From: Chiloscyllium plagiosum
Lineage: Eukaryota
Length of the DNA: 64,000 nucleotides
NCBI RefSeq assembly: GCF_004010195.1
Contig: NC_057754.1
Span: 9,515,516-9,579,515 of the forward strand
Direction: 5' to 3'
Within the stretch, counting starts at the first letter, position 1, and each line of letters starts with the position of its first letter. Of this stretch, positions 21,684 to 54,576 are shown piece after piece. The notes beneath the pieces were generated by a model. The model was given only the letters and a program-made list of their open reading frames with translations, was not told the origin of the DNA and made no database searches. The position numbers and the translations under genes are program-made.

Positions 21684-21750
21684 ATGCGTGAGGCATTTTA
21701 TAGTGTTGCTAAGATATATTACCTGATCATTGCCATCGTTGGTGCTCCTG
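21684..21750 (+). CDS. GPR139-like GPCR gene 1, coding exon 1 (MREAFYSVAKIYYLIIAIVGAP)
   Basis: ATG 21684, phase-1 donor G|GTAAGT at 21751, start of TM1, TATAAA at 21593. Homologous to exon 1 of the other two GPCR loci. Confidence 0.82.
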
Positions 21751-21889
21751 GTAAGTGACAGTAGTTGTGCAAAGCTGAGTTTTTGAGCTGGTCATTGTAT
21801 GTATTTTGTCACTAATGTTACATGCTGCTCTACTGGTCGTATTACTGTGGTAAAAAAAATTAGTGAATAATTTTGTCAAGGCAAACGAT

Positions 21890-23340
21890 TTGAATGATCT
21901 CTCCAGTTATTTTGTTGGGCATGGCGAGCACAGCATTTATTGCCAATTGCCTTTGACAGCATAACCCTATCCCTTACCTTATCCCTACCCCGACTGCAGG
22001 TTATGGTGTTTCCATGTGTCTGTTGCCTGTCTCCTTCCAAAATTGGGATGTGTTGTTGAAGGAGTCTTATAGAGCTGGTGTGGTGCAGCTCATAGATGGT
22101 ACACATTGCTGCCACTGTGCGACACTGGTGAAGGAAGTTAATAGTTCGGGATGGAGTGCTAGATGACTGGGACCTTGTGTCCTGGATGGAGTTGAGATTC
22201 TTAAGTGTTGTTGGAGCTGTACCTGCCCAGGACAAGTGGAGAATATTCTATCAGACTTGTGCCCTTTAAATGCTGCACTCACTTCAATGGGTTATCAGGT
22301 GTTGTTCACCACAGAAGTCCCAGCCTATAACCTGCTCTTGTAGCTTCAATATTTATATGGCTACCCTAGTTCCACCTCTGATCAATAGTAACCCACATTA
22401 CGTAAATATGGGGGATTTAACAGTGGCAAAGGCATTGAATATCTAGGAGCGATAATTTGACTCTCTTCTGTTATTGATGGTCACACTTTGAGAACTGATG
22501 ATGTAAATGCTTCATTTGTTTTTCCCACAGCAAGGTTTGAGAATCTGTTGGCCCTGTTTGCTGAATATCTTTAGCCCTCTAAGACAGAGTCACGGTTCTG
22601 TGTAACTGATTATGTTTTGACGGGTCAGCTATCACCGCTGATCAGTCCTTATATTTTTCACTCTATCAACACTTTGTTGTGTGAGGCCTGTTCCAGACAG
22701 GAGAGGTGCCTGTAACTGTGGCCATACATGTTGGGATTGCATCATACAGAGGACAGAACGCACATTCCTAAAATTGTACTGACGACCTTATTAGTCCACC
22801 TTTTTCAATTCTGATCTGATCCAGCTGAAAATAATTATACTCCCTCAAGCATATAAATCTGCGACTCTTTTAAATAAAAGGTCTTTCTTAAAAATTCATT
22901 CGTAGGATGTGGTATATCACCAGCTATTCCTGCACTCATTGCCAGTTCCCGGTTGAACCTTGTGAAGGTGCTGATGAACTGCTGTAGTCCACATGGTGTA
23001 GGTGGATGCATAATGCCCCTTGGGAGGGAATTCCAAAATTTTAACTCAGCGTCACTGAACGAAAGGTGATATATTTCCAAGTCAGGGTGTTGAGTGGCGT
23101 GGAGGGGTTCTTGCAGGTGGCAGTCTTCCCATGTATCTGCTCCTTTTGTTCTGCTAAATGGAAGAGGCCGTGGGTTTGGAAGGTACTGACGCAGGACGTT
23201 TGGCGAATTTCTGTGGTGCATCTTGTCAACGATATGCATTGCTGCAGCTGAGCATCAGTGGTGGAGAGAATGGATGCTTGTGGATGTGGCACCAACTTAA
23301 GCCGGGGCTGCTCTGCCCTCACTGCATTCAAGCTTCTACT
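21890..23340 (-). mobile_element. Two 3' fragments of the CR1/L2-superclade LINE family seen at 4290 (~21890-22450 and ~22890-23340), in the GPCR1 intron
   Basis: Mutually similar ORF remnants (APTTLKNLNSIQD..LHQCRTVAAMCTIY; KMHHRNSP..LRQYLPNP..WNSLP). Confidence 0.65.
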
Positions 23341-23935
23341 GTCACAATTATCCCCTCTCCGAGAGCTATCACCTAATTTTCAATTAACCCAATTGTCTTC
23401 AACAATCATCTCTTTTAAAGCTGAATTATTCCATTAACAGCATTACAAACATTCATTTTTGGTCCTCTCTCCCCAATACCCAACATTTCTCGAGCCCTCC
23501 CATTCTTTTAATATGCTCAATATCCAACATCTTCCAGGTTTGACCAAAGGATATTGGCCTGAAATGGTAACACCGTTTCTGCCTCCTTACATGTTGATTT
23601 TCCAACTAATTATTCTCAAACCTTTCCTGTGTTAATCAGATTTACATACTCATGTGTATAATACATGAAGACAAAAACTGGCTGGCTATAGAAATACCCA
23701 TAAAAACAGGTCAGTACAGACATTTTCATTCATTGTCTACATATCAGCTGTTCTGATTTGATTCACTCTGGAAACTAGAATGTCAGAAGTGCATTAGAGT
23801 TGGAACTGAGATTTTTGTGATTGCGATTGTTCCTTTCTAACCAGAACCTAACCAGTCCTAAAATCCTTCTTTTGATCCCTGTGCCTGATTTTGTTGTCAA
23901 TATTTTAAGTACCTTTTGCTTTTTCTCTCTTATAG

Positions 23936-24831
23936 TTAACTTAGTGGCGATTGTGATCTTTTCCCGAAGAAGGTGTGGCCTCTCTATCTGCAGCACTCGC
24001 TACCTGATAGCCATGGCAATGGCTGATCTGCTGGTGATTATCACTGAAATCATAATGAGGCGGCTCAATTCTTATTATTTCCTATTTTGTTTCCTGAATA
24101 TCGTCCCTGTGTGCAGTATCATTGCTGTCCTGATTCGTGCGGCTGTAAACTGCTCTGTCTGGTTCACTGTGACTTTCTCATTTGATAGGTTTGTGGCCAT
24201 TTGCTGCCAGAAACTAATGACAAAATATTGTACTGCAAAAAATGCGATTGTGGTTCTTGCAACAACCTGCGCCCTGCTCTGTTTAAAAAATGTTCCCTTT
24301 TACTTTGTATTTGAACCCGGGCTGAGAATCGACCGTGTTTCCTGGGACTGCTATATTAAACCAAGCTACTTCACTGAACCTGGATGGGTTAGATTTCACT
24401 GGTTTGATATGATTTTAACCCCAGCGCTACCATTTGCTTTAATTCTGCTGCTCAATGCTCTGACAGTAAGGCACATTTTACAGGCAAGTCAACTCCGCAA
24501 AGGACTGAGGGGTCATAGAAGCCCAGGGGATCACCGTGACCCAGAGGTGGAGAGCAGAAGGAAATCTGTGGTATTACTCTTCACCGTTTCTGGTAACTTC
24601 ATCATCCTTTGGTTGGTTATTGTTATCGATTTTTTTTATGATGAATTTACAGGAAAAGAGCCTCTTGATTACACCAATTCAGAATATATATTCCACGAAG
24701 TGGGAATCATGCTCCTGAATTTGAGTTGCTGCACTAACACATTCATTTATGGAGTGACTCAGTCCAAGTTTCGAGAACAGCTCAGGAGCATGGTGACATA
24801 TCCACTTACAGCAATCGCTCGTTGTATTTAA
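23936..24831 (+). CDS. GPR139-like class A GPCR gene 1, exon 2 (spliced product ~320 aa)
   Basis: Polypyrimidine tract plus tatag| acceptor in phase with exon 1 (G+TT AAC = V-N). TM2 AMADL, TM3 FSFDRFVAIC, TM7 SCCTNTFIY, helix 8 KFREQL. No stops. Confidence 0.9.
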
Positions 24832-25189
24832 AACCAAAACATTTTACAACATCCCAGAGCCGGGTCACAGGGTTTCGAGTTCACAAACCTACTCAAAGCC
24901 TTCCAAGAGAGGACAAAGTGAAGTGCACAGGGGGAAAGAGATTGGAGTTCCGCAAGTAAGTTCAAGAGGAGAGACACAGCACCTCCAGAGGTCAGCAAGG
25001 GAACAGCACTCAGAGTGGTTGGAATCTCGCTTCTTTCTGTCTGCTGCAGAAGAAAAATCTTAGTTGTGTAAGAGCAAATTCTACACATCTCCTGGTGCAC
25101 AGTAAATGCAACACAAGCCAAGGCTTCAATGTGCACCTGGATCCCTTGCCCAGGTTTGGAAGGACCAAAAGGAAAGGCAGTTGGAGCTT

Positions 25190-26130
25190 TTGATGTTGCT
25201 GTGAGTTGCTCTCTCTCCTCAGGTTCTATCCCTCGCTACATCCAACCGGCCATTCACATGCCTCTGCTGAAAAGCAGCACCCCATCCTCCCTGGCAACTC
25301 AATTTCCCAAACCCTTTCCCCACTCTTTGTGATCTTACATCCCTGATCTGTGCCAGAGCTTAACATTGAGACCTTCCATTCAGGTCTCAGCCCAGAAAGA
25401 TTACGGAAATATTGAGGGAAGGAATTACATCTTATTTGATGTGGGCGAAGGCGGAATACCTATTCTCCTTCATAACTTGCTCGCTGACATTGACACTCCT
25501 GCCCCAGCATCTTTCTCCATTAAGTCTCTATGAATGTCAAGTCATGTGGAACAGCACCTGTACAGTCTTCTTGACCCCATCCTCTCACTGTTCCTTGGCT
25601 GCTTCAGATTCCTCAAATTTCACATGTAAAAAACAGTGTAGGTTCCTACATGCAGGTTGGAGATATCCATCTCGACCAGAACACTATCTCTTTTGACCTG
25701 TCCACTGTCTTCATCCTTGCTCTCTGCGTATGGAAACTCATAAATGCCACCATGAAGGTGATGTACTGATACTTCCCTGAGATCATCAGACTTCACCCCC
25801 TGCCTCAGTTCAAGGGATGGCCGAGACCTATCCCATGAGTCTGCTTTAACTCCAAATATCAATATTGCAACACATTCCTGGTTGGCCTCCTATAATTATC
25901 CCCCTAGTGTGTTCAAGATCATCCAAACCTCTATATCTTTACTCACAGCAAGTCCCATTCATGATCCCTCCTGCTCGAAGAATTCACATTCCTCGACAGT
26001 CAAGCAATGCCTCGAGGTAAATAGTCCATCCTTGTTTTATAAAGCCCTCATTCCTCTCTCTGTTTCTGTCCCTATTGCCCCATCTCTTTAGCCTTCCTGA
26101 GCCACATATCCCTCCCCATCTCAGGAACTT
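25190..26130 (+). mobile_element. Old L2-like LINE 3' fragment
   Basis: C/T-rich degenerate L2-like RT C-terminal sequence. Confidence 0.45.
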
Positions 26131-26457
26131 CTTTCATCTCTGACAGATACATGATGATGATGATTCAAGTGGTGCAATGCAAGACAGTTTGAAGCCAACA
26201 GGCTGAATTCAGGAGCTGGAAATGAGCTGGAAATTTGCTGCAGCTATTTCTTACGTGAAGAAAGCATTTGCAAATTTGCCCAAACCAGGCTGAGCGAAGG
26301 AGGACTTCCTTTCTGTGAAAACTGTGGCCCAGATACTCTGGTCAGTTGTCCTCTGCTGACAATTAGACTGTATCTTGGAAGGGGAACTAAAATTTCCATG
26401 AGGTACACACAGTTTTGAACGAAATTGGTGATTGATATAATGAGAGATCTTTACTGA

Positions 26458-26700
26458 TTGTTGTGGTTCTGTTCGCCGAGCTGGGAATTTGTGTTGCAGA
26501 CGTTTCATCCCCTGTCTAGGTGACATCCTCAGTGCTTGGGAGCCTCCTGTGAAGCGCTTCTGTGATCTTTCCTCCGGCATTTATAGTGGTTTGTCTCTGC
26601 CGCTTCCGGTTATCCGTTCCAGCTGGACCCAATATACCGGCCACTGCAGCGGACAGCTGGAACTGACAACCGGAAGCGGCAGAGACAAACCGCCACAGTG
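26458..26700 (-). mobile_element. Penelope-like pLTR with internal inverted repeat and hammerhead (26496-26535)
   Basis: ttgtctctgccgcttccggtt (26591) is inverted at ~26668-26690. Minus strand GCA-CTGAGGA-T-GTCACC-TAGACA-GGGGAT-GAAAC-GTC-TGC. Confidence 0.8.
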
Positions 26701-26788
26701 TTCCAGTATGATTGAAGCCTACCACAGGACCAGAGACAATGGTAAGAGCCTGGATGTAGGTTTGCTCGCTGAGCTGAAAGGTTCATTT

Positions 26789-26828
26789 TCAGATGTTTCG
26801 TCACCATACTAGGTAACATCTTCAGTGA
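26789..26828 (-). ncRNA. Minimal hammerhead ribozyme motif
   Basis: TCA-CTGAAGA-T-GTTACC-TAGTAT-GGTGAC-GAAAC-ATC-TGA. Confidence 0.65.
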
Positions 26829-27480
26829 GCCTCTGGACAAAGCAGTGCTGATGATTCCTGCATTCTGAACACAGTCCGCAGATATCACAGCAACAAACCC
26901 AAACAAACAGACAAAACATGTCCAGAAACCCTAGCCACTCTCCCCCTACGTCAAAGACATTCTGGAAATGACTGCTAGATTACACAGACCCCTTGGCATC
27001 ATGGTAGCCCAAAAACCCATCAACACACTAAAACAGCAGCTAATGAACTTGAACGACCCTATACAGACAACAAGCAAAACTAATGTCATTTACAAAATAC
27101 CGTGCAAGGACTGTAATAAACACTACATTGGACAAACAGCAGAAAACTAGCCACCAGGATACATTACCATCAACTAGCCACAAAACAACGTGACCCTCTC
27201 TCACTAGTATCCTTACATACAAACAAGGAAGGACACCAAATCCATCGTAGGACAGGCCAAACAGAGACGCACGAGAATTCCTGGAAGCATGGCATTCCAA
27301 CCAGGACTCTATCAACAAACACATTGAGTTGGACCCGATTTACCACCCCCTGAGAAAAAGAACAGTAAATGACATCACCATAGGAAATTACATCACCACA
27401 GGAAATGACATCACCAACCCCAAGAAACCCAAACATATAAATAGAAAGCAGGAATCATCAGCACTGCTTCGTCCAGAGGT

Positions 27481-27520
27481 TCACTGAAGATGTTACCTAG
27501 TAGGGTGACGAAACGTCTGA
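27481..27520 (+). ncRNA. Minimal hammerhead ribozyme motif (best preserved)
   Basis: TCA-CTGAAGA-T-GTTACC-TAGTAG-GGTGAC-GAAAC-GTC-TGA: stem I TCA/TGA, 6-bp stem II, GUC. Confidence 0.75.
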
Positions 27521-30816: not shown

Positions 30817-31130
30817 GGGCGGCACTGTGGCACAGTGGTTAGCACTGCTGCCTCACAGCGCCTGAGACCCGGGTTCAATTCCCGCCTCAGGCGACTGACT
30901 GTGTGGAGTTTGCACATTCTCCCCATGTCTGCGTGGGTTTCCTCCGGGTGCTCCGGTTTCCTCCCACAGTCCAAAGATGTGCAGGGCCAGGTGAATTGGC
31001 CATACTAAATTGCCCGTAGTGTTAGGTAAGGGGTCAATGTAGGGGTATGGGTGGGTTGCGCTTCGGCGGGTCGGTGTGGACTTGTTGGGCCGAAGGGCCT
31101 GTTTCCACACTGTAATCTAATCTAATCTAA
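30817..31130 (+). mobile_element. HE1-type V-SINE (young-looking) inserted in L1
   Basis: Near-complete, with (taatc)n tail. Confidence 0.92.
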
Positions 31131-32382: not shown

Positions 32383-33372
32383 TGAGTCCTACCAGGGACA
32401 AAGGGATTAATAAGTCTTGAGGTAGAGTTCAGAATACTTAATGTGTTTGCTGTCTTGGCGTTTATTCAGGAAGAGATAACAGCAAATTTATCAGTCGTGA
32501 GAGTGAGTTCGTGTGAATGTGAGGCTGTGCGTGCCTGAGAAATTGTCAGAGCATGAATGAGAGTCTGTGACAGAGTGACCAGCTCTGCCTGTAATGGAAC
32601 ACACTTTGAATGAATTAATCAAAATGCAATGAGTCAACGTCTCAGAATCTCTCTGTCTCTCTGTTGTTTGAAGAGGTAAAGTGCCACCCTCTGCTGGCCT
32701 CCCCACATCACTGCACAAGCTCCACATTTCTCTCTGTTTGCCCTCCTTTTGTCTTCTAATCTTCCAGGGGGACGGATCAATCCCCGATCACATGAATCAT
32801 CCAGTCCATCAGAGGATGGATCAATTCCCAACCACATTGATTCCCCAGTCTTCCGGGAGGTGGGGATGGGTCAACTCCCCACCGCATCGATCACCCAGTC
32901 CTCCTTCACATTGAGGTATCTAATAGTCTAACTTTTGCTGAATTTATACAAAACCCTCTGAAGTTGAAATGGATACTTTTGGAGTGTTCCAGGCCTGAGA
33001 CAACCTCCCAGGGGGATCTTCAATGTCCCGAGCGATTTCTTCAAACTCTGCAGAAATGGGGATTCCACAGGATCTCTGTTGACAATGGTGAAGCAGTGGT
33101 GGAAGACTTTCCTCAAACAATATCTTTTCATATTCTTAAACTATTCAAAGTCGTGGCGGAATTATGGCAACAAGGGAAGCTTTTCACCGTATGTTACTGT
33201 ATTTTTCCACTGTAAAATATACACAGCAGTGAAAAATATCATTCATTTATTCATTCAACACGAGTTATGCTCAGGGCGGGAGGCTTTAAATTCAAAAATG
33301 AGCAAGCTCACCTATGTCCAGTTCTGGTCATCCTTTTATAGGAAGGACATTATGAAGCTGCAGAAGATATTG

Positions 33373-34338
33373 TTACTGAAACAAGTTCCCATTCAGTGCA
33401 AACAAATATTTTGCCAAATGCTTCAGTTCCTCTCTGAACTTTCTCTGCACAATTCCACAGATGGACGCATTTGTGTCGGAACCCAGAAGCTGCAGTAACA
33501 ATCCAACCTGTTGAGTGATGTACATCGGATTACTGAGGGTATTTGCCTGTGTCACAATAATTTATCACTGGCCAATTTACCGAACGTACAATATACGTCA
33601 TCTAAAGGAATATGAAATTAGCAGAAATACTGAAAAGCAAAACCACGGTGTTCTCTGATTGTTCCATTCAGGACCGTTCTGGTTGCTGCTGTTACTCAGA
33701 AGTCCCCTGCATAATCTCTTAGCAAAATCCTGAATGGGAAATCTCATTCGTGGACCAAACGCTGGTTAGTCCTTGGGGAAAGTGGGAAATGGAAAATATG
33801 ACAAGTATATCGCACACCAACAAAAGAAAATTGTCGATTTTCCGTTCGCATTAACCCAGTTAATAAGCATGGAAATTATAGGTCATCATTGATAAAGACG
33901 CTGGATACAAAGACATGCAAACGAGACAGAGTTCTGCAATGTAACATGTGAAATAATTTTGCAAAGAAGCAATTATTGAAACCACCTTGATATAAGCATT
34001 ACAGCAACTTTAGCGTTGAAACATTCAAGAAGTTGTAATTCATTTCTCATCTGACATCAGTGCCCTCCTAGGTCAGAGTTTCTCTCTGAAACTTCAAAGA
34101 CATTAACTGTTTCAACATAGCCTGAGGTGCAAATTGCAATTTGTGAACCACTTTACGAAAATAGGACATTCTCTTTACATTAAACAAATACCAGCAAGCA
34201 GAAAATGGATGAAATTTAATTTTGCGCATTGGTATTCAACTTGTACTATATTTTTTTCACTCGCTTACCAAGAATACTGATAGCAGCAAGAATTGGCTAG
34301 GAAATAAACCTGATCTGAAAAATTGTGGGATATCCCAT
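33373..34338 (-). pseudogene. GPR139-like GPCR pseudogene (exon 1 plus TM6-TM7-helix 8; TM1b-TM5 not found)
   Basis: Exon 1 34338-34269 MGYPTIFQIRFIS*PILAAISIL-G|GTAAG. 33730-33373 reads ..VLLFSISANFIFL*MTYIV..QQVGLLLQLLGSDTNASICGIVQRKFREELKHLAKYLF, aligning with the C-termini of both intact GPCRs. Confidence 0.8.
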
Positions 34339-34819
34339 TTCTTGCGAGAAACTCCAATGTTTGCACTGCCAGGCAATCTTTTTCTGACTGTGTGTAAGCA
34401 CCGAATATACTCAGAGTCACTTACTTAAATGAAAGAGATGTCTCCATGGGATAAGATCAGGGATATCAATGACATTCCACTGAATAAACAAATGCACACG
34501 AACTTTTCTGATTCCAGGGATTTGTGAGTAACACAGATCATTCACCACAGTGTATGTCAAAATGCTCACCACCCCCCCCCCCCCCCCCCCACTGCCCATC
34601 CTGGTAGCACTCATCTCATATTACAGAGCTGCACAAGGTCTCTTCCACTCCCTCCACCCGATCCCAGCCAGCTCCACATTCCCCAGTGCTTGCCTCTCAC
34701 CTCTTCCACACCCCCGGTGTCGACCGGTTGACCCACATCATTGCCACTGGGCAACCTTTCAAAATTGCTTCAGCCTTCCTGATTACCTGATGTACCAGCT
34801 TTCTGAGTTCCACCCGCAG

Positions 34820-36050: not shown

Positions 36051-37759
36051 AACGTGTGATAATAGAAATGCTTAAGAGGTTGTCCTGTTTTCTTTAGAAG
36101 GGCGGTTTTAAGTCAGAGGTAGTGAGGTGCCTATTTGAAAAGCTAATAAAGTAAACAGCTTGTGAGACTTTTTCTTTAAATTAGAACGATAGAAGCAGTC
36201 TGAAAGGGTATTGTCAAACTCCCACAGAACCAGGATTTTTAGTTTCTCAGTTCTTCAGTAGCAGTTACAGGGTCATAGGGTAATACAGCATGGAAACAGA
36301 CCCTTCAGCCCAGACTGGTCCACAGTGACCCTGATGCCCACTCAGCTAGTTCCAACTGGCTTCATTTGGCCCATATCCCTCCAGGAATACACTTTATCCT
36401 GGCTAATGATATAGCTGGATCACAGGGGGTGAGTGAGGCCTGTTGTGGTTGAAAAGCCTGTGGAAAATCAGGCAACTGAGGAAACATACGCTGGGATTTT
36501 TCCTGACTGTATGGTAACAAGGTCACAAAGCCACAGGTAGGAACTGTAGGAGAAATCAAAGAATAAAGATAGGGAAGTTGAAGTTCAATTATCAGACACG
36601 ATGTTTGATCAAATGATTGAGAAACAAAAACAAACACAGCTGGAGGACGAAGTGGACAATTTTAGTTCAGAGAAATTAACTGAAATACAACAGAGAGATG
36701 AGAAACTAAAGCAGTTATATCAAGGCATGTACACAAGAGAAGAATCTGAGTGTATCCCAGAATGTTACTATCTTAAAAATGGTGTTTTAATGAGGAAATG
36801 GAGACCATCACGTATTCATGCAGATGAGAAATGGGCAGAAAATCATCAAATTATATTAGCGATGGGTTATAGAAAGGAGGTGTTGCAGGTAGCATGTGAA
36901 TTACCAGTAGGAGATCATTTAGGTGTAAGGAAAACTCAAGCCAAAATACAAAAACATTTTTATTGGCCTGGACTGCATCAGGATGTGTTTGAATTTTGCC
37001 AGAAATGTCGTCCGTGTCAGGTAATTAGAAAACCAGTACTCTTAACACCCATTCTGGCATTTGAAGAAACCTCTACAAAGGTCTTAGTTGTTTGTGTAGG
37101 ACCCCAATCTAAAACAAAAAGTGGGAATCAGTATTTGTTGACCATAACTGATGAGTCCACTAGATTTCCAAGGCCATTCCATTACGGCTATAAGGATTGG
37201 CGAAGAGTTACTCAAAGTCTCCACCTGATATGGACTACCTACAGAGATACAATCAGATCAAGGGTCAAATTTCACATCAAAGTCATTTAAAGGAGTTCAG
37301 AATAGCTGAACAAAGAAACAATTCAAATCCACTGCATACCATCCAGAATTGTAGGGAGCATTGGCATCGAACTTTAAAGACAATGTTGAGGGCTTATAGC
37401 CAAGACTATCCAGCGGATTGGGAAAAGGAATTCCACTATGGAAGTAGAGATGCACCAAATGGATCTACCAAATTTAGTTTTGGGGCATGAGATGAGAGGA
37501 CCACTAAAAGTAATGAAGGAGAAATTGGTGAGTCAGAGTTCAGAGACCACATGTTTGAACAATGTGTCAATTTTTTGGGAAAGATTAAATAGAGTGGGTG
37601 AGTTGGCTAGACAGCATCTGAAAATAGCACAGCATGTGATGAAACAGGAAGCAGGCAATAAATCAAAAATTCGCAAGTTTGCTAGCGGAGATCAAATGTT
37701 AAGACAAGATATAGCAGACCTTATCAAATTGAACAAAAACTGAGAAAGATTAACTATTT

Positions 37760-40111: not shown

Positions 40112-43100
40112 TGTCATAGACCAAGCCAGACCCCCTCAAAACATTTCAAGAGGTTAGCCCAGACCCTAACTTTGGTAGTTGTTTTAAGCAGGTGTAGAGT
40201 AGATATTCCAGGAGTGATGCAGCTGTCCCAACCACTTAGCTTTAAGAAAAAGAAAGGATTTATTTGCTAGATTACAAACAAATGAGAACAGAACACAGAA
40301 CAACTTAATCTATCCTAAAACCCAACAGATTATCCCCAACATAATAATGCTATTCCAACTATTTGCAACAATCCACATAAATGCCCCTTGGCACAAAAGG
40401 TGGAATCAAACACAGGGTCTTCCAGGAGCGAGAGAGAGAGAGAGAGAGAGATGGCAGAGAGATTCAGCAAGGAACACCTTCTTCCACGCAGCTGTTCCTT
40501 GCATCAAAACGCACCGCTTTCAGTGAACAGCCAGAGTGCTAAAAATCCAAAACCAAACCAAACCGGAGTAAAGCTGAGCTGGGAGAGCTCACTGTGCGAC
40601 TCGAACGCCTTTTGCCTGAAGCAGTACTTGTTAGCTATTATCAAACCGGCCCTCAAACCCTTTAAACCTAGTCTTTTCAGAATCACTGCTTTTATGACCT
40701 CTCAGAAAAGAAAAGCCAAGGACAGCATAACCACATTAAAGGAACAGCATCGCCGTACCTCCCCCCTTTAAAAAAAAGACCCATCAATATCCAAAGATGG
40801 CTTCATTTTAAAACCCTTTAATCTTAACCTGTTAGCACTCGAAGACACACGTATACGTTACATTGACGATGATCATGCAACGCGCTCTACTACATTTCGT
40901 TTCAGTCCATTTTACCCCTGCCACCGAAAGCCTTCCTTTCTTATTCAAGTCTCGACAACGCGTCAGCAGTCCGATTTTCTCATCCTGCCCCATGCACAGT
41001 TTTCACATTGAGTGCACGCAACAACAAGCCTCATTGAAATAGTCTGGAGTTTTTGTCCTTAAATTTCTCCATAAACTTCATTCGGTCATGACCAGTGTCT
41101 CAGATTGTCTCAGATACATTACTGCTGAAAACGTGTTGCCGGAAAAGCGCAGCAGGTCAGGCAGCATCCAAGGAGCAGGAGAATACATTACTGGTACATT
41201 ACTGTCTCAGATACATTGAAATGTTGTAATGCTCAAAGTCTCCTTCTATACAGTCAAATATTTCTGCCTATGAATGTTCAGTTTCCGAGTGAAATGCCCG
41301 ATAGGTCTTCCTAACTTCTTCCTGTAAGAGCACAGCATCGACACCCACATCACTTGCATCAATAGCCAATCTGAATGGTTTTGTGTAATTAGATGTGGTT
41401 AACACTGGGGCAGTGGGTAACACAGCTTTCAGGCTGTCAAATGCCTTCAGACAGTCTGCTGTTCACTGAAACTTCTTACCTTTCTTTAGCAATTCAGTGA
41501 GTGGAGCAACTAGCCTGCCAAAATTTGGTATGAATGTTCGATAAAATCCATGAATGTTCAATCCCAGGAATCATAGTACTGTTCTTTTTGTTGATGGTAT
41601 GGGAAGCTCCCCAATTCCCTTTGTTTTTTGCATTCTGTGGAGCCGTTTGTTCATGTCCAATAACGTGGCCCTGGAAGGTGACTTGGGTTTTGGCAAATTC
41701 ACTCTGAGCTCGGTTTCTCAACAAGCCCGCCTCCCGAAGTCGATCAAACCGGTCTGATAACTGTTGCAAATATTCCTTCCATGTGTGACTAAAAACTACC
41801 AGGTCATCGGTGTATATGATACAATTGGGCAATCCCCAAGTCACCTTATTGGTTTGTCTCTGAAATGTAGCTGGGCCACTTTTCAGACCGAATGGCATGA
41901 CTTTAAACTGATACTGTCCATTTGGCGGGATGGAAGCCAAAAGTGTTTCATTCTGAGCAAGTCCAACTTAGACATTAAGCTGCTTGTCCCATCTTTTCAA
42001 CACAGTCTTCCAAACATGGAATCAGATATGCATCAGTCTTTGTAACTGCATTGACTTTGCAATACTTCACACATAACTGTTGGGTACTATCTAGTTTTGG
42101 CACCATTACTATGGGTGAGCACCAGTCACTGTAACTCAGTTTGATTATGTCATCTTGGAGCATGCAAATAACAAACAAAGAACAAAGAAAATTTACGGCC
42201 CTCCAAGCCACTGTCTAAACCTGTCAGCCAATTCCTAAGCATCTGCATCCCTCTGCTCCCCACCTACTCATGCATCTGTCCAGACGCATCTTAAATGAAT
42301 CTACCGTGCCTGCCTCTACCACCTCTGCTGGCAACACGTTCCAGGCACCCACCACCTCTATGTAATGTACTTGCCGCGTGTATCCCTCTTAAACCTTTCA
42401 CTTCTCACCTTGAGTGCGTGACCTCGCGTTATTGAATCCCTCATCCTGGGAAAAAGCTTATCTCTATCTACCCTTTCATGATTTTGTAGACCTCAATCAG
42501 GTCCCCCCTCAATCCTAACCCACTCAAAGGTTGAGTGGGTTAGGATTGTTTTCATGAGAAAAAAACAACCTCTCTTCATAGCTAGCACCTTCCATACCAG
42601 GCAACATCCTCGTAAACCTTCTCTGCACCCTCTCCAAAGCATCCACATCCTTTTGGTAATGTGGCGACCAGAACTGTACACAGTATTCTAAATGCAGCCN
42701 NNNNNNNNNNNNNNNNNNNNNNNNNNNNNNNNNNNNNNNNNNNNNNNNNNNNNNNNNNNNNNNNNNNNNNGCAAACTTGTTGATCATACCAACAGTGCCC
42801 TCTTCCAGATCATTTATGTACATTACAAACAACAATGGCCCCAACACTGATCCCTGTGGAACACCACTGGTCACAGGTCTCCATTTTGAGAAACTCCCTT
42901 CAACTACTACTCTCTGTCTCCTGTTGCTTAACCAGTTCTTTATCCACCTAGCTAGAACACCCTGCACAACACGTGACTTCACTTTCTCCATTAGTTTACC
43001 ATGGGGAACCTTATTAAACGCCTTACTAAAGTCCATGTATGTGACATCTACAGCCCTTCCTTCATCTATCAACTTGGTCATTTCTTCAAAGAACTCTATT

Positions 43101-44468
43101 AAGTTGGTAAGGCATTATCTTCCCCGCAGAAAACCATGGTGCCTTTCGCTGATAAGCCCATTCTTTTCCAAATATAAATAGATTTTATCCCTCAGTACCT
43201 TCTTCAGCAACTTTCCCACCACGAATGTCAGGCTCACTGGTCTGTACTTATCTGGAATATCCCTACTACCCTTCTTATACAGGGGGACAACATGAGCAAC
43301 CTTCCAGTTCCCCAGCAACTCTCCTGTCTTTAAGGGTGCTACAAAGATATCTGTCAGGGCCTCAGCTATGAGTTCAATCATGTTTTGAACCCGTGTCAAC
43401 TTGAGAGGGTTGCGCCTGAAAGGATGTTGCTTAATTGGAACAGCATTTCCTATATCTACATCATGCATAATTAAGTTAGTACTTCCCAGATTACTTCCAC
43501 ATATCTCCCCATGTGATAGAGATAACTCTTTCAGATCATTTCAATTTATCTCTGGAAGGTAACTCAATAATTTGCCCAAATTTTTTTAGAACTTCTTCAT
43601 TGTCCAATTTAATTTGAGGAATGTCCAATTCAGAATCCTCTCTGCTTGGTTCTTCCTTCTGTGTTGTGACCGATAACACAGTCTCCTTTGGCTTTCCTTC
43701 CCTGTCAAAGTACCTTTTGAGCATATTCGCATGCCACACTCTGTGAGATTTCTTTTTTGTCAGATAGTTCACCTCACTCAATTTCCTTTTGACTTGATAC
43801 GGTCCACTAAACCTTGCTTTTAAAGGTTCACCTATCACTGGAAGTAACTTTATCCTCAAAAGCAAAATTGCGAGTTTTTTGATTTCTTGTTTGCTTCCTG
43901 TTTCATTGTATGCTGTGATACTTTGCTATCTAGCCAACTGCTCTGCTCTATTTAATCGTTCCCTAAACCTTGACACATACTGAGACCATGTGGTATATGA
44001 ATTCTGACTTACCGATATGTCCTTAATCAATTTTAGCAGTCCTCTCACTTCCTGCTCAAAAACGAATTCAAACGGACCGAATTTGGTCGATTCATTTGGT
44101 GCATCTCTGATCACAAAAAGCACAAATGAAATTCCCTTATCCCAATCACCTGGATAGTCTTGACCATAAATCTTCACATGGTCTGGAATGTCTGATGTCA
44201 CCTTTCCAGTGCTCCCTGCGACTCTGGTTGGTACACAGTAGATTTGAATTGTTTTATTCCTAAGCTGTTCACAACTTCCTTGAATAATTTTGATGTGAAG
44301 CTTGATGTTTTAAAACTTGAAAGCCCTTTTTCTGAGGCAGTATCTGTTAGCCCTTAAACTGGCCCTTAAATCCTTCAAATCTAGACTTTCAGAATTGCTG
44401 TTTTCATAACTTCTCTGAAAACAAACCCAATGAGAGCACAACTTTATTAAAGGAACAGCCTCATCACA
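40112..44468 (-). mobile_element. Internally deleted Gmr1-like element with 4-bp TSD CTCA
   Basis: CTCA at 40108-11 and 44469-72. 3' LTR 40112-40757, PPT 40758-40770, RH, RT (YQFKVMPFGLK..YTDD), IN (ARFSGPY), residual 5' LTR end ~44310-44468. Confidence 0.88.
42165..43375 (-). mobile_element. CR1 LINE RT fragment nested in Gmr1 element (spans N gap 42700-42770)
   Basis: [29 protein letters not shown]. Confidence 0.9.
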
Positions 44469-46434
44469 CTCACAGCATTTTAATCATCATCCCTGAGTTT
44501 GCCAAATGAACTCTATGCATGTCCCGCCATTTTGAATGGGTATCCAGAGTGACCAAGCACATTGACTCCATGAAAAGACCGGTGTAGTCCACGTGTGGCC
44601 AAATCCAGGGATAACCCGGCCATTCCCACAAATGTGGGGGACGCTGCTGGTGGTAATTTCACTCTGTCTTGGTGCTTTGGGCACCGGTCCATCGACACAG
44701 CTATTTCAGCACCCAATCCCGGTCACCAGACACAACGTCTTGCCAACATTTCCAATTCAGAAAGCCACTGGATGACCCTGGGAGAGTTCAACCAGTATCT
44801 GATGGCGACCTTTACTCATGAGAATCACTCTTACTTCCAACAGTAATGTGGCATTTTCTACGGTGATCGGGTCTCGCTGGCTTGAGAAAGGTTTCAATCC
44901 TGCTTGTCATGGCCACTGCTGAATTCAAGCAGAAGCTAGGGGTGTAAAGACTTTAGCCTTCTTTTTGTAGCCCTACCAGGTGTTTGTCATCCATTATTAT
45001 TACAAATTTATGTCCGTAAAGTTATCAATGGAACTTTCTCATGCCAAGGATGACTGCCAATTCCTCCTTCTCTCTGGGCATATTTGCGTTTGGCAACTAC
45101 CAACATCCGGACAGCCGAAGCTATGGGTATTCCCCTCCTTTGAGCCACCGGTCAGCCAACGCTACATGATACTGTTAGTGGAGGGAGCGCCTGTCAGCAC
45201 CACCTCACGCTCAGGATCAGAACGGCCAACATCTTGGATGACGATGGTGCTTTTTTCACTTGTTTAAAGGCTGCTTCTTGGTGATGTGGCCTTTTCCAAG
45301 AATGAACCTTTCTCAATAGCAAGTGCAAGGGTTCCAGTGCGGAGACCGAGTGACTTATGAATTTTCCGTAATAATTCACCAGCTCAAGGAAAGACGTAAG
45401 CTCAGGTGCAGACATGGGAGCTGGGATACTTTTGCTCACCCTCACTTTATCTTCCAATGGGAATAACCCAATCTTGTCAACTTTGTAGCCCAACTTGATC
45501 ACTTGGGGTGCCTGGAATATACATGTTTTCTTCCCTTCTAAGGCATGCATCCACCTGGGAGAAACATTATGAGCACATGATCAGATGAATAGCAACCTGG
45601 AGTCGACCTTGTAAAATGTTCTCTATCGTCCACTGGAAAAGGGGCACAGGCTGGTCATACCCCAAATGGCAGCCTCGTATATTGGTAGAAACCGTTACGT
45701 GTATTCATTTGTGGCGTTCTTCTGGGACACCTCATCCTGCAGGTCCATCTCCAGCTTTGTGCAGGACCGCTGCCCCACCCCTCGACAGTTTTGTGTCCAT
45801 ATCCTCTGTGTGAGGGATTGGGTATTTATCCAGCTATAAGAAGTGGTTGACCATTTGCTTAAAGGCAAACTGACCCACCAGGCTTCACCATCGGTACAAC
45901 TGGTGCTGCCCGTTCTGCAAACTACACGAGCTTGATAATTCCTTCCCTTTCCCGCCTCCTGATTCTGCCTCCACCTTTGCCCTTAAGGATCACAGAATTG
46001 CTTCCTGGTCAATACGTAAGGTGGCTTTGGCTCTTTTGATAGTCACCAGGCCTTGTTGGATAACCTCCAGGTATTTATTTAGGACTTCACTCAGGCTAGC
46101 TATTTTCTCATTGGAAAATGTTGAGCCAATCGAGGTGAATCTTTCCGAACTGATTCCGAACCATAAAGCTTAGGCCCGAGGCTTTTGCTACAGTCAGTGG
46201 GAACTGCTTCTCGTAGGAGACAGGAACTGAAGTCTTGCCCTTAATATGGAATGGTTCCCCAGTGTATGTTCTCAGTCTAGCTAAGGTCTTGCACAAACTT
46301 AAAGGTTGGAGTCTAGAACGAATCTTGTTAAAGACTGGTTCTGCAAACACTGATATAGAGAGCGAACGGAGAAACTGAAATCCAAGATCTCCATGACAAC
46401 CGGGCGACCATTTAACCAGACATATAGTTTCGGT

Positions 46435-47748: not shown

Positions 47749-47941
47749 ATGAGAAAGAGAATGGGTTGGAATCTAAAAGCGACAGATTTCAATACTACAA
47801 CAGAGGACAGGAGTCTATCTCTTTGGCTTGACCGTCTTTCGGCAGATCAAACGTGGATCACATTGGCGGATCAGATCTATTGGATTCTTCGCATCATTCA
47901 ATTTGTTTACTATCCCATCCTCGCTGTTATTGGGGTCCCTG
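47749..47941 (+). CDS. GPR139-like GPCR gene 2, coding exon 1 (start could be 47749 or 47761)
   Basis: MRKRMGW..DFNTTT (N-glycosylation sequon)..YYPILAVIGVP, phase-1 donor G|GTAGGT at 47942. Confidence 0.82.
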
Positions 47942-48499: not shown

Positions 48500-49650
48500 G
48501 ATAAAAATGGCAGATGAGATATGCAAATTGTTCTTCACGTTGGAAAATACAGTAAGTCTCCCAGTAGTTATTGAGACCACATTTGGAGTACTGTGTGCAG
48601 TGCTGGTTGCCTCACTTTAGGAAAGATGTGGAAGCTTTGGAGAGGGTGCAGAGGAGATTTACCAGGATGTTGCCTGGAATGGAGAATAGGTCGAACGAGG
48701 GTAGGTTGAGAGTGCTAGGCCTTTTCTCATTGGAACGGCGAAGGATGAGGGGTGACTTGATAGAGGTTTATAAGACGATCAGGGGAATAGATAGAGTGGA
48801 CAGTCAGAGACTTTTTCCCCGGGTACAACAGAGTGTTACAAGGGGACATAAATTTAAGGTGAAGGGTGGAAGGTATAGGGGGGATGTCAGGTGTAGGTTT
48901 GTTACCCAGAGAGTGGTGGGGGCATGGAATGCGCTGCCTGTGGGAGTGGCAGAGTCAGAATCAATGGTGACCTTTAAGCGGCAATTGGATAGGTACATGG
49001 ATGGGTGCTTAAGCTAGGGCAAATGTTCGGCACAACATCGTGGGCCGAAGGGCCTGTTCTGTGCTGTATTGTTCTATGTTCTATCTTCTGTGAGGAACTG
49101 ATGTGAATGAGGAACTCAAAAACCAATAACGACACAGTAACACTGGAGAAATAATTGGAGCTGAAAATTGACAGATTTACTAACATGAATTATAATGCGT
49201 CCCAGGGAGTTGAAAGAAGTAATTGTGGTGAATAATACTTCATTGCTGGCCCGCTGTCAACATTTTACAGCTTCTGAATTGGTCCATTAGGATTAGAGGG
49301 TTGCAAATGTATCACAGCTATTTACAAAAAAGGGAGAGGGATAAAACAAAGAACTATTGACCCAGTTGGTTGACGTCAGTATGAAGAGAAATGATAGAAT
49401 TTCTTGTAGATGGTGATGTGATAACGGGACACTGAGAAAACACTGATCTGATTGGGCCACAATCAACATCAAATTATGAAGGCGAGACCATGTTTGACAA
49501 ACACGTTCGAGATTGCTTGAGTATGTTCCTAAGATGACAGATAAGGAGACCCAGTGGATCTGGTGCTGATTAGATTTGCACAAGCCTTTCAATCAGTTCT
49601 TAAACAGGAGATTTGCAAATAAAGCTAAAAGGACATGGAGTGGGGTTTCG
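48500..49650 (+). mobile_element. Young CR1 3' fragment (48571-49085) within older CR1 fragment
   Basis: RPHLEYCVQCW..RGDLIEVYK..WNALP, (tgttcta)n tail. Flanks show RVANV..KKG and LDLHKPF remnants. Confidence 0.85.
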
Positions 49651-50006
49651 GGTGTAAATAAACTTGCCAGGGTTAACAGTTAATTATCTATAATTCTAAA
49701 TGTGTTGGATAGTGATGGGATCCGGACTGAAACAGGAATACAACAGCTTTAAGGCCAATGACTGTGTATGGAATTGGTGCTCTTAAAAAAAATGTCACGT
49801 TACTAAAACTCATTGAAAGTTTTATTTTCGGCGATTTCCTTGAAGGAGAGACAAGAGGCGTTGGTCCTGAAGTGTGTGAGAGTGACATTCATCCAGGAAC
49901 AGTTGTGCATTATTTTGTGAAATTGTGATCAATTGTTGAAGCCGGATGTCATCAGCCTGATGTCCATTCTCTGACTGGTGAACCAGTTGACAGTTTACAA
50001 TAGAAG

Positions 50007-50039
<33 letters not shown>

Positions 50040-50182
50040 GGAGAGAGAGAGAGAGAGAAGCTTGCAGAGTGTTGAAGGCACAGTTTCTCTTGAAATAAAT
50101 GAAGCCGCAGAAAAACAATTGTTTTCTCCCCATCAGTTTCTCTCTTTAAACAGTAAGTATGATATTATAATGAGCATTGCAA

Positions 50183-50455
50183 TTAGATTACTTACAGTGT
50201 GGAAACAAGCCATTTGACCCAATGCTTTGCCTATAACCCTCTATTTATCCTGGCCAATCCACCTTAAGCTACTCACCTACGGGCAATTTAGCATGGCCAA
50301 TTCACCTGACCAGCACATTTTTGGACTGTGGGAGGAAACCGGAGCAAACCCACACAGACACGGGGAGAATGTGCAAACTCCACAGTCGCCTGAGGTGGGA
50401 ATTGAACCCAGGTCTTTGGCGCTGTGAGGCAGCAGTGCTAACCACTGGGCCACCC
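50183..50455 (-). mobile_element. HE1-type V-SINE inserted in left IR arm
   Basis: Absent from the right arm. Confidence 0.85.
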
Positions 50456-50618
50456 TGTGATTTCAGCAATGGCGTCCACTCAGGAGATCAGAGAACAGAA
50501 AATCCTGGGAAGGAAAAGTAACATGTCATTAAAACATCTGGACTGGTGCCATTGAACCATGTTTCCCTCCTGTTTCCTCCATTCATAACACCAGTGTTTT
50601 GTTTTTGTTTGATTCTGT

Positions 50619-51270
50619 TGTTAGGGCCTAGGCCAGACCACTCAAAACATTCTTAAGCAGGAGGACCCCCAGACCATAACTTTGTAATTTGTTCCAGTAA
50701 GTGTGCAGTGAAAATTACCCTGAGTAAGTTAGCAAGGTTGACTACCAGGTTTTAAAGCAGACAAAAATGTATTCACAAAATTACACAATGAAACACAAAG
50801 AATAGAATAAGGAACCCCTGCAGAACTCAGTTTATCCAAACGAGACTTAATAATGCTGTTCCGAATATACACAACAATCCTAATATGCAAACCTACTTAA
50901 AGACCAGTGAGAAAAGTGCAACTAATGTTTACAGGTTGAAGTTAAAAAGACAGAAGGAGAGAGAGAGAGAGCCTGTTTACATAGTCCACTGCTGAACTCA
51001 CAATGAGTTCTGGACTGAACTGCTCAGCTAAGAGAGCTGACCACTCCCCTTCCATTGTACAGGTCACTTCTAAAACATGACCACTTTGGCCTGAAGAATC
51101 GTCTGTTTACATATAAACAAAAAGGCCTCTCAATACCCTTTTCACCTCTGTACCGAGCTCGTCTAATCGGAACTGGGAGAATTTTTGACCCCTCTGAAAA
51201 AGATCAAGGACACAGGATCCTTGAGGAAAAGAACAGCTTTCAGAAAGAAAAGGGGACCAGCTTTGTGACA
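50619..51270 (-). mobile_element. Solo Gmr1-type LTR, 4-bp TSD CTGT/CTGC
   Basis: TG..CA ends. The empty site (gattctgcccatg) is visible in the right IR arm. Confidence 0.85.
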
Positions 51271-53677
51271 CTGCCTATGCAGCAGAATTCCCCATTGCAG
51301 AGCTTCTCCTGTGCATGACTTGTGCTGAATTAGAGGGTTGCAAATGTGTCACAACCACTTTTAAAAAAGGGAGTGTGATTAAACAAGGACCTGTTGACCC
51401 ATTAACTATAGCAGGAAATACACTATTTCTAATTTTGTGAATGTCATATTAAGTATGTGAATGACCTATGTGTTATTTTATGTTGGTGAAAACATGCAGA
51501 GGATCCTCGTAGTTTTGGGTGATGTGGAACAGTGATTATGTCTAACAGTTCGTGTGTTATCATGCAATCTGGAGAATATGAGGTTGTCCACTTTGGGAGG
51601 GAGAACAGAGAAACAGTTTAATTCATAAACAGCGAGAGATTGGGAGTGATCGGTGTCAAAGGGACCTCAATGTCCTTCTTTATAAGTCTCTTGCAAACTA
51701 ACATGGAAGTGCAACAAGTCATTAGAAAGCCAAAGGTTTTGCCAGCTTTGTCATGACAGGATTGGATCAACAGAGTACAGAAAACATATTTCTATTGATA
51801 AACCTCTGTGATATTGTACCTACAATATTGTGTACAGGTTCCCTTAACTGGTCTGACTCTCTTCACTCATCCCCTCAAAATGCATTACTTCAAGCAAATT
51901 CCATGCTAAGGAAATATTTAAGTGCAATGTTAAATGCACAAATAAACAAGACTTGTTGCTCTTGTAGTTCTGTTTTGGAATCTTAAATTCTTTTCATCCC
52001 CTGTCAATGTTGCTCACCAACAACAGCAGATCATTCTATTGTAAATCGTCCGAAGAATACAAACGCTTAGGAACTCAAACGTAAGCAATCAGATCTGGAA
52101 CAGTGAGTTTCATTCACAAGTACAGATACCACTGTCTACCATTGGACTGCTTACTTCCTGTGTGTGTGTGCTGTTTGTTCCCCCAGAATTGCAGCGTGAC
52201 AGTGGTTTGTTCTGAAATGAATGCTGCAGTTGTACCTGAGCCTGCCCTCCTGTTTGTCCCACTGCCTGTCTCAGTCTCTCTGCTGGTATCAAACCTATTC
52301 TGCTGTCATTCAACTCCATTTCTCCTTATTCTCTGTGTTCCCCTCTTTTCAACATTGGCCGGAAAAAGCACTGGGACCTCAAAAATTAAATATTATCACA
52401 AATCTAATAAAGCGCAAGTCTTTGTGATTGATTTAAGTATCAATTTCCACTTCTATTTGCTCTTTTCACATCGTTATCTGCTGGATACCCAAAATCCACA
52501 GTTAACCTCTCTGATGGAATCAGGTCAACAGAAATTATTGACCCGTTTATCAACTTAACAAGAGCTATGACATTCAGAAAATGAATGAACACTGGTCACA
52601 GGCAAAACAGAACTACGACCAACTTTAAGTCTACTACCTGAAACACCAACTGTCTTGTAAAACTTCTGCACAAACACATGGGCAGAATCAAACAAAAACG
52701 AAACACTGGTGTTATGTGTTTCAGGTAGTAGACTTAAAGTTAGACTTAAAGGAAAACAGGAGGGAAACATGCTTCAATGGCACCAGTCCAGATGTTTTAA
52801 TGACATGTTAGTTTTGCTTCAGAGTATTTTCTGTTCACCAATCTCCTGAGTGGGCTCCATCACAGAAATCACAGGGCAATTGTGATGCTCAGTATAATAT
52901 CATACTTACTGTTTCAAGAGAAAAACTGACAGAAACTGATGGGGAGAAAAGAATCATTTTGCTGCGTGCTTCATTTACTTGACTGCCAAGAAAGATCAAG
53001 AGAAACTGTGCATTCAGCACTCTGCAAGCTTCTCTCTCTCTCTCTCTCTCTCTCGCTCCCCCCCCTTCCTCTCTCATCTCTCTCTCTCAACCCCTCCCTC
53101 CCTCTCTCATCTCTCATCTCTCTCTTCCTTTCTCTCTCTCTCTTTCTGTCTATCTCTCTCTCTCTCCCACTATTGTAAACTGTCAAGTGGTTCATCAGTC
53201 AGAGAATGGACTTCGGGCTGATGACTTCTGGCTTCAACAATTGGTCACAATTTCACAAAACAACGCACAACTGTTGCTGGATGAATGTCACTCTCACACA
53301 CTTATCTCTTCTTATCTCTCTTTCAAGGAAATCACTGGAAATAAAACTTTCAAAGAGTTTTAGTAGCATTTCATTTTTTTTATATAGAGCAGCACTTCTA
53401 TACACAGTCTTTGGCTTTAAAGCTGTGTTCTTCCCATTTCAATCCAAATCTCATTATATTCCAATACATGTAGAATTGAGAAGGTGCCACCTTTTCACTT
53501 ATGGATAACTAACTATATTTAAACCAGGTCATGGAAGGTTATGATCAATGTTGCAGTCACAATTCGAGTAGATTTTTAATGATCTAATCTCTCTCACATT
53601 TAATTCAACATTATTGAATGCAGTGTTACGGTGACAGGTCCAGCTTTACAATCCACCCTTATCTATTTTCCTTGCAG

Positions 53678-54576
53678 CAAACATAATGACGATGGTGATC
53701 CTGTCACGGGGAAAATGTGGTCTCTCAAAATGTATTACTCACTACTTGGTAGCCATGTCAGCATCGGATCTACTGGTCATTATACTCAACTTAATTTTGA
53801 GGCACATTCCAATTGTTTTTTCAGAATATTTTTCATTTGTGAAGTCCATCCGTGTGTGTAATATCCATGCTGTCCTACTGTATGCAGCTACAGACTGCTC
53901 TGTCTGGTTCACCGCTGGTTTCACCTTTGACAGATTTGTGGCTATTTGTTGTCAGAAGTTGAAATGTACATATTGTGTGGAGAAAACTGCAGTTATAGTT
54001 CTCGGAACAGCCATTGTGCTGAGCTGTTCAAAGAACATCACCTGGTACTTCATGTATACAGGCAAGTATTGGCTGATGAATGTACCATGGTTTTGCGTGT
54101 TAACAGAGGATGTTCAGTATTCTTGGATCTGGGGAACAATTGAGTTTGTCCATCACATTCTAACTGCTGCCGTCCCATTTGTTATCATTTTGCTTCTCAA
54201 TATTGTCACTGTGAAACATATTATAGTGACCAACAGAGCCCGATGGAGACTCTTGGCTCACAACAGTCGGGGGATTACAAGAGATCCTGAGATGGCGAGT
54301 CGGCGGAAATCCATCATTTTACTCTTTGTTATTTCAGTGAATTTCATTCTGCTGTGGGTAGTGTTCTTGCTGTATAGTATATGGCGACGCATGTGGCATG
54401 TGGGGTATCGGACCTTATGGCTCGATCGCTCTGCACGAGAATTGGGGTTCATGCTTCAGCTCTTGAGCTGCTGCACGAACACCTGCATTTATGTCGCGAC
54501 GCAGATTAAATTCAGAGAACAGTTGAAGCACATGTTCAAATATCCCTTCATTGTCATGTGCCAGATCGTTCACTGA
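53678..54576 (+). CDS. GPR139-like class A GPCR gene 2, exon 2 (spliced product ~363 aa)
   Basis: Acceptor ttccttgcag| in phase (G+CA AAC = A-N). SASDL, FTFDRFVAIC, SCCTNTCIY, KFREQL. Intact. Confidence 0.9.

Follow-up and report, generated by a model that had tools for sequence, protein, structure and literature searches.

A large family of GPR139-related receptors in the shark Chiloscyllium plagiosum, with a possible role in chemosensation

The stretch of the Chiloscyllium plagiosum genome analysed here (assembly GCF_004010195.1, contig NC_057754.1, positions 9,515,516 to 9,579,515 of the forward strand; 64,000 nucleotides in total, referred to below as the window) contains two intact genes and one pseudogene of a class A G protein-coupled receptor (GPCR) family that comprises roughly 2,000 loci in this shark. 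The family is related to, but distinct from, the orphan receptor GPR139; it is under purifying selection overall, and its members combine a conserved cytoplasmic side with a variable outer side. That it serves as a chemosensory repertoire, probably an olfactory one used by microvillous neurons of the nose, is a reading to which we give an even chance, the support for a sensory role being indirect and coming solely through the promoters. The proteins of the family are already present in the databases under an automatic name; the expansion itself has likely been overlooked, as no description of it was found in the literature searched, a body of texts that takes in few of the subscription journals and only a part of the supplements. 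The terms "GPR139" and "receptor 139" do not occur in the main texts of PMC11979771, PMC8455134 and bioRxiv 2022.10.17.512540, nor in three supplements of PMC7677710 and 12 of the 24 supplements of PMC8455134.

Receptor genes of the window

The three loci, numbered in their order along the window, consist of the following parts:

21684..21750, plus strand: coding exon 1 of locus 1 (subfamily A), a very short N-terminus and the first half of transmembrane helix 1 (TM1), with a phase-1 donor
23936..24831, plus strand: exon 2 of locus 1, the remainder of the seven-helix receptor, intact
33372..33713, minus strand: exon-2 remnant of the locus 2 pseudogene, from intracellular loop 3 to the end, with stops and frameshifts (nhmmer E 3.4e-26)
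34269..34314, minus strand: exon-1 relic of locus 2, with the splice donor at 34269 and an in-frame stop
47749..47941, plus strand: coding exon 1 of locus 3 (subfamily B), a longer N-terminus with an N-T-T sequon, with a phase-1 donor
53678..54576, plus strand: exon 2 of locus 3, the remainder of the seven-helix receptor, intact

Locus 1 encodes a protein of 320 amino acids in two exons separated by a phase-1 GT-AG intron, and locus 3 one of 363 amino acids, also in two exons, the first of which is homologous to the other B-type first exons. Both proteins score above the Pfam 7tm_1 cut-off and exhibit the features of class A (rhodopsin-like) receptors, i.e. the 7tm_1 match itself, seven helices, R3.50, W6.48 and the N7.49/Y7.53 pair. 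They share 143 of 307 residues (47% identity), in agreement with the roughly 40–50% estimated by eye in a preliminary description of this DNA, and the motifs named there (CGLS, DPE..SRRKS, KFREQL and others) are indeed present in the loci. The common architecture which that description ascribed to all three loci applies to loci 1 and 3, whereas the middle locus is only a minus-strand relic: it retains the last ~38% of exon 2 (33713–33372), and a search for the first ~60% of that exon gave no match.

Concerning the database records, a protein identical to exon 2 of locus 1 is entered as "probable GPR139 [Chiloscyllium plagiosum]". The corresponding model (P0001) uses another first exon (23652–23709, situated inside the intron of locus 1) and is thus left without half of TM1; since homology supports 21684–21750, the latter is taken here as the first exon. 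Close paralogs are found for both intact genes: L002 and L003, ~0.9 Mb away, are 87–91% identical to locus 1, and L032 (G000:C45:6844253-6845089), 2.7 Mb away and disrupted at the start of exon 2, is 94% identical to locus 3.

Family size, spread and turnover

In genome searches with the two intact genes, the best 132 of ~8,300 first-look candidates for each have E < 1e-100 (one extra fragment row excepted), so the family relationship cannot be due to chance. The two lists of matches are, by inspection, nearly disjoint; subfamily A denotes the locus 1 type and subfamily B the locus 3 type. Exact genome scans returned 935 (narrow pattern) and 1,356 matches for a TM3 motif, with no match in either control, and 1,393 for a TM7 motif (control 1); applied to 60 known loci, the narrow TM3 pattern detects 28 and the TM7 pattern 47. 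Among the matches listed for contigs 1–8, a TM7 match is present also at 43 of the 77 TM3 matches, and capture–recapture from the TM3/TM7 overlap gives 2,100–2,400 loci, the union being ~1,700. The family therefore comprises roughly 2,000 loci in C. plagiosum, a count to which allelic duplicates on unplaced scaffolds may contribute. For scale, the V2R-bearing contig C13 has 38 near-full-length class C matches.

A sample of 40 TM7 matches, drawn from the first 100 listed on contigs 1–8, contained 38 members of the family and two unrelated sequences; exon 2 is intact in 17, broken in 15 and left unresolved by assembly gaps in six. With about half of the sampled copies being intact, the number of working genes may be extrapolated to between several hundred and a thousand. 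The 17 intact copies are no more than 89% identical to their nearest neighbours. An elasmobranch expansion accompanied by pseudogenisation, as proposed in the preliminary description, is thus supported, with more than 1,000 motif matches in each broader scan and 15 broken copies among the 32 resolved. The opposite outcome considered there—a few copies with one-to-one orthologs in bony vertebrates—is not what the census gave: the scans returned 935–1,393 matches, and no one-to-one ortholog stood out.

The copies are distributed over many contigs, with high densities on the small chromosomes and towards chromosome ends, and many of the matches lie on unplaced scaffolds. The AG acceptor is kept at the same place in 59 of 60 loci, by which retroposition as the mode of spreading is ruled out. 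Young B copies have several kb of intron in common, including tandem repeats, at 78–90% identity; the retained acceptor together with these long common intron stretches indicates spreading by DNA duplication. It may be added that the introns of the young B clade (L104, L111–L116, L121) are long and shared and carry a ~65-bp tandem repeat that could assist the spread of the cassette. Outside this species, the named relatives come from sharks (horn, sevengill, saw, basking, cat, smooth-hound, zebra and whale sharks) and batoids (skate, stingray and devil rays); no chimaera name occurs among the relatives listed.

Evolutionary relationships

The evolutionary tree was based on 43 of 52 rows, those left out being L126 (empty) and L013, L029, L041, L129, P0182, P0438, P0265 and P0325 (for speed). 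It places all 22 family rows in one clade (support 95/91), sister to an orphan receptor of amphibians and sturgeon (100/99), and groups both of these with two further low-copy orphans of jawed vertebrates (99/97), apart from GPR139 and GPR142; the base of the tree, i.e. the relation to GPR139/GPR142, has a support of only 62/25. The identity of the family with GPR139 is ruled out by the approximately unbiased (AU) test (p 1.6e-105 against a clade of the family and GPR139). The GPR139 motif occurs once in the genome according to the motif scan, and the true GPR139 of this shark is L122/L061 on C21, scoring 527 bits to human GPR139, as compared with 35 bits for locus 1. Locus L123, 56% identical to the shark GPR139, is likely GPR142, judging from its sequence. 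Each of the two shark genes is found 60–130 kb from a lower-scoring 7tm_3 match, an arrangement that presumably corresponds to the human GPRC5B/GPR139 and GPRC5C/GPR142 linkage.

A kinship with GPR139 is retained all the same, as seen in the intron position and the best structure match. GPR139 is the nearest characterised relative, with the position of the TM1 intron common to both, and the best sequence match with a solved structure (E 7e-8; profile E 9e-31); the next matches after the vertebrate orphans are invertebrate receptors. Like the family, GPR139 and GPR142—class A orphans activated by Trp/Phe (PDB 7vug, 9m42)—possess a phase-1 intron just before N1.50, and it is their name, "GPR139", that the databases automatically give to family members. 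In comparison with GPR139, C3.25 and the cysteine of extracellular loop 2 (ECL2) are present in the family, P6.50 is mostly missing, and R6.51, F3.33 and the TM7 asparagine are absent.

The amphibian and sturgeon orphan, likewise named "probable GPR139" (Pleurodeles XP_069092602.1, Xenopus XP_031757816.1, Acipenser RXM35349.1), has the motifs DPE..RR.S and DR..I.C..L..YCT in common with the family; its pocket residues are conserved between salamander and frog, unlike the variable pocket of the family. It is represented by 20 amphibian clusters, no two of them named for the same species, and by the sturgeon, and a word-based search found no teleost or amniote match to it. All 119 shark matches to the amphibian orphan lie within 128–156 bits and 29–37% identity, so that no one-to-one ortholog stands out; with about one gene per species on that side and no single best match on the side of the shark, the whole family looks co-orthologous to the amphibian gene. 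The two further low-copy lineages, also automatically named GPR139 (L127 and P0264; P0287/P0290 and P0236), extend from sharks to bony fishes; one of them reaches reptiles and includes two models bearing the label TMEM183A.

Three orphan sets beside GPR139/GPR142—GPR210A, GPR210B and a third, unnamed one—have been reported from coelacanth, gar and fishes (Rinne et al. 2019; PMC6504862), the present tree likewise containing three such groups (99/97). They are probably the same groups. The main text of that article does not contain the word "shark" and gives no expansion for those sets. The protostome receptors for MIP/sex peptide, FMRFamide, proctolin, RGWamide and myosuppressin, for which a common origin with GPR139/GPR142 has been described (PMC8514136), are 24–30% identical to the family, their placement in the tree being poorly supported.

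With regard to the six known vertebrate chemoreceptor families (OR, TAAR, V1R, V2R, T1R and T2R), the likeness consists in clustering, birth-and-death turnover and a variable pocket and, for mouse OR promoters (PMC3247239) and the V2Rs of this shark, in an O/E (Ebf) site and a TATA box near the start; the family differs by its intron inside TM1 and by matching only 7tm_1 in Pfam. Homology to any of the six was not found, 7tm_1 being the only Pfam match and GPR139-group orphans the nearest relatives, in a tree drawn up without TAARs. The TAARs also fall under 7tm_1.

Selection, pocket and structure

The overall ratio of nonsynonymous to synonymous rates (dN/dS) is 0.22 for 49 copies of subfamily A and 0.33 for 35 copies of subfamily B, loci with stops, Ns or duplicates having been dropped beforehand; the overall selection on the family is purifying. 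Across these 84 copies the cytoplasmic side is conserved and the outer side variable, as had been noticed from the two intact proteins alone. The least conserved segments are ECL2 and ECL3 (49% and 32% identity in subfamily A, respectively). For 16 disjoint close pairs, the proportional ratio pN/pS is 0.63 in the outer half versus 0.32 in the inner half, reaching 0.94 in ECL2 and 1.45 in ECL3, the last value being significantly above 1 with respect to the global pS (p 6e-6); of the 44 sites with pN above the global pS, 33 are extracellular (Fisher p 1e-4).

A different explanation of the family size would be a mostly passive amplification of a dispensable gene within segmental duplications of the repeat-rich small chromosomes and chromosome ends, with the count partly inflated by unmerged haplotypes. 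The long introns common to the young B copies, the share of broken copies, the many matches on unplaced scaffolds and the zinc-finger and histone arrays present on the same contigs would all be in accordance with it. It nevertheless appears distinctly improbable in view of the low dN/dS at deep divergence, the presence of members across sharks and rays, the limited identity between intact neighbours and, as shown below, the positionally conserved promoter elements and real poly(A) sites.

The two subfamilies vary in different parts of the pocket. In subfamily A the variation goes deep into it, involving TM3, TM6 and TM7 (entropy of 2.3–3.4 bits at 3.28, 3.29, 3.32, 3.33, 6.51, 7.35 and 7.39), R3.50, W6.48, N7.49 and Y7.53 being invariant; in the sampled B copies the deep pocket is nearly fixed, and the variation is seen at 6.58, 7.35, ECL2 and ECL3. 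Chemoreceptor repertoires combine a ligand side that varies with a signalling side that is conserved, and form large clustered families with birth-and-death turnover; both traits are observed here. The activation of GPR139 by Trp/Phe requires F3x33, H5x43, W6x48 and N7x38 (PMC5430874); at these positions locus 1 has R, D, W and I, and locus 3 has Y, H, W and F, i.e. the former keeps W6.48 and the latter W6.48 and the TM5 histidine. The view that the repertoire was built from an amino-acid-sensor scaffold, put forward in the preliminary description, is thus not supported, because the family is not derived from GPR139 itself (the shark has its own GPR139 elsewhere, and the AU test rejects the grouping) and the residues for Trp/Phe are mostly replaced.

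The AlphaFold model of locus 1, built from an alignment, has a pLDDT of 87.4 and contains seven helices and a β-hairpin in ECL2. Its nearest folds according to Foldseek are peptide, opioid and chemokine receptors, in a flat list at a TM score of ~0.7 that gives no ligand identity. Both the model and these neighbours would suggest a ligand of the peptide type, and the disulfide together with the ECL2 hairpin would make peptides likelier ligands than free Trp/Phe.

Promoters

The following promoter elements were recognised in the window:

21541..21551, plus strand: O/E (Ebf)-like site of locus 1, with one mismatch to the V$NOLF core
21553..21564, plus strand: the subfamily-A promoter element ATGTTGYAAY of locus 1, conserved
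21593..21599, plus strand: TATA box of locus 1, upstream of exon 1
34441..34451, minus strand: O/E-like site upstream of the locus 2 relic

A homologous exon 1 is present in 38 of 60 fetched family loci; in the other 22, belonging mostly to the young B clade, none was found within 8.9 kb. Locus L065 was dropped from the promoter set, having too little upstream sequence. The A-type promoters exhibit a positionally fixed order of elements, counted from the donor: ATGTTGYAAY near −198, TCCCCNTGG near −180 and TATAAA near −157. The first of them, which may resemble a C/EBP-type site, occurs in 21 of 32 A promoters (shuffle mean 2.4). TATA matches are most frequent in one 20-nt bin, −160 to −141 relative to the donor, which contains 21 of them, with 21/32 promoters positive; the best promoter motif reaches an LL of 102, as compared with 44 in introns.

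As for the O/E core, its consensus was taken from Young et al. (PMC3247239, Table 1). With up to two mismatches it is found in 27/32 A promoters (shuffle mean 7.4, maximum 11) and in 14/19 V2R promoters of the same shark (6.1, maximum 10); the control promoters are not enriched, with 5/13 for crystallin (shuffle 2.8, maximum 6) and 10/16 for histone H3 (shuffle 10.0). With at most one mismatch the counts are 9/32 and 7/19 versus 0/13 and 0/16, respectively. The far-upstream and intron windows contain the core at the shuffle level, and a narrower O/E pattern is present in six of the 32 A promoters. It should be noted that the crystallin set has 13 members after dropping 7 of 20 loci without an exon-1 match. 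When the whole genome was scanned for the two-element promoter module, 43 matches were obtained versus 6 in the control; the pattern alone is not specific, since only 4 of the first 30 matches had a family exon 1 downstream.

The V2R/OlfC cluster used for comparison (G000:C13:63.7-65.9 Mb, L130–L189) yielded 19 first exons with TATA shortly before the ATG and O/E-like sites, a CAGGTG box being common to one subgroup. The γ-crystallin cluster (L250–L269, G000:C7:10.7-11.1 Mb) comprises ~30 genes, TGCTGA being a conserved element ahead of the TATA box.

The promoters also bear on the idea of an immune repertoire, already mentioned as an option in the preliminary description, in which leukocytes or barrier cells would sense microbial or damage peptides in the manner of formyl-peptide or MRGPR receptors. 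The rapid turnover and the variable outer face would fit it equally well, Ebf-like together with C/EBP-like sites suit B-cell or myeloid control, chemokine receptors are among the fold matches, and the copies crowd small chromosomes and chromosome ends. We consider it unlikely, as the O/E enrichment parallels that of the V2R promoters of the same shark, and more than 1,000 loci exceed any immune GPCR family known to us. In its favour, fast-evolving chromosomes enriched in immune genes were reported for C. plagiosum, in the chromosome numbering of that article (PMC7677710); against it, the immune gene table of the same article has no GPR139 entry.

Expression

In the single-cell poly(A) run X9 (source tissue not identified), 307 of 12.96 million records fall on L059, a gene of the young B clade. 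Over its stop codon and 3′ untranslated region (UTR) the depth is 55, 46 and 26 on one strand versus ~1 on the other, the former being the sense strand on the assumption that the second mate reads sense in this type of library. Seven reads have loose poly(A) ends at 2639 and nine at 2658, downstream of the signals AATAAA (2621) and ATTAAA (2634); there is no genomic A-run at the 2658 site, so the poly(A) is untemplated there. Of 17 B loci compared, 14 retain the poly(A) signal, the other three being divergent or incomplete. Based on the pile-up over the 3′ UTR and the untemplated ends, some members of the family make polyadenylated RNA, at a low level and in one clade of subfamily B. At locus 1, the reads mapped from four runs were solely fragments of repeats and paralogs.

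A further alternative places the repertoire, chemosensory or nociceptive, elsewhere than in the nose, i.e. in taste buds, skin chemosensory cells, gut endocrine cells, sensory ganglia or sperm. All the evidence from the coding sequences applies to it as well, Ebf acts in many types of neurons, and the poly(A) reads of run X9 could come from such a tissue. Such organs have, however, small repertoires in other vertebrates—cartilaginous fishes possess 4.1 taste receptor genes on average (PMC10869828)—and the promoter site resembling that of the V2Rs speaks for olfactory neurons, which makes this location rather unlikely.

Olfactory reading and its implications

If the family is olfactory, its genes would be activated by Ebf-type factors in sensory neurons, with one or a few of them in use per cell; the receptors would differ in the water-borne molecule that they bind and would share one G protein for signalling. 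In a stronger form, held here with somewhat less than even confidence, the family would represent a seventh vertebrate chemoreceptor family, its approximately one thousand intact GPR139-related receptors being the main odorant receptors of the microvillous olfactory neurons of sharks and rays. Sharks have large olfactory organs but are credited with only ~10–60 olfactory receptors (20–62 genes per cartilaginous fish in PMC10869828), which has been explained as discrimination traded for sensitivity (PMC10116579, PMC10869828). Should the seventh-family proposal be true, the tiny size of this repertoire would arise because the count has been confined to the four known olfactory families. In the catshark, every olfactory neuron is positive for TRPC2/Go, and these cells make up a nearly continuous monolayer, the probe for the V2R co-receptor labelling 5.94 cells/mm and those for other receptors 0.45–2.76 (Syed et al., PMC10116579). 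So few labelled cells would leave most of the neurons without an assigned receptor, provided that the cell bodies are ~10 micrometres wide; both this conclusion and the assumed width are ours and not those authors'.

Several observations weigh against an olfactory function. Concerning the promoters, ATGTTGYAAY, their strongest element, is present in none of the 19 V2R promoters; the strict TCCCNNGGGA palindrome is in 0/32 A promoters; homeodomain sites are not specific, as they are present in 8/13 crystallin promoters; and inspection of five B promoters by eye did not reveal the module. Moreover, paralogous promoters are non-independent samples, and Ebf is also a B-cell and a general neuronal factor. 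The excess in ECL3 is not significant when related to the local pS (p 0.16). As for RNA, no support for locus 1 was found among the datasets listed, its exon 1 having zero read depth in the four runs; the X9 signal is modest and comes from paralogs, only 2 of the 307 reads having at least 99% identity, and the same run contains opposite-strand reads over the boundary of the intron and exon 2 (L059:1336-1760, an oligo-dT end lying at 1362), which may stem from internal priming or from an antisense transcript. Finally, the catshark list of the top-50 "brain and olfactory epithelium" genes includes no GPCR (PMC11979771); V2Rs, being GPCRs, are missing from it too.

Whatever its function, a receptor family of ~2,000 loci contradicts the relative paucity of GPCRs in cartilaginous fishes that was stated in the whale shark genome paper (PMC8455134). 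Expression in the nose, if it is found, would require the history of smell in vertebrates to be rewritten so as to include another independent recruitment of a GPCR to olfaction.

Other features of the window

Upstream of the receptor cluster, an exon at 10153–10956 encodes a C2H2 zinc-finger array (Pfam zf-C2H2). Decayed Gypsy-like fragments of long terminal repeat (LTR) elements, recognised by eye from open reading frames, lie at 15600–18800 (minus strand), 36550–37740 (plus strand) and 41000–45600 (minus strand), and CR1/L2-like and L1-like pieces of long interspersed elements (LINEs) are scattered throughout the window.

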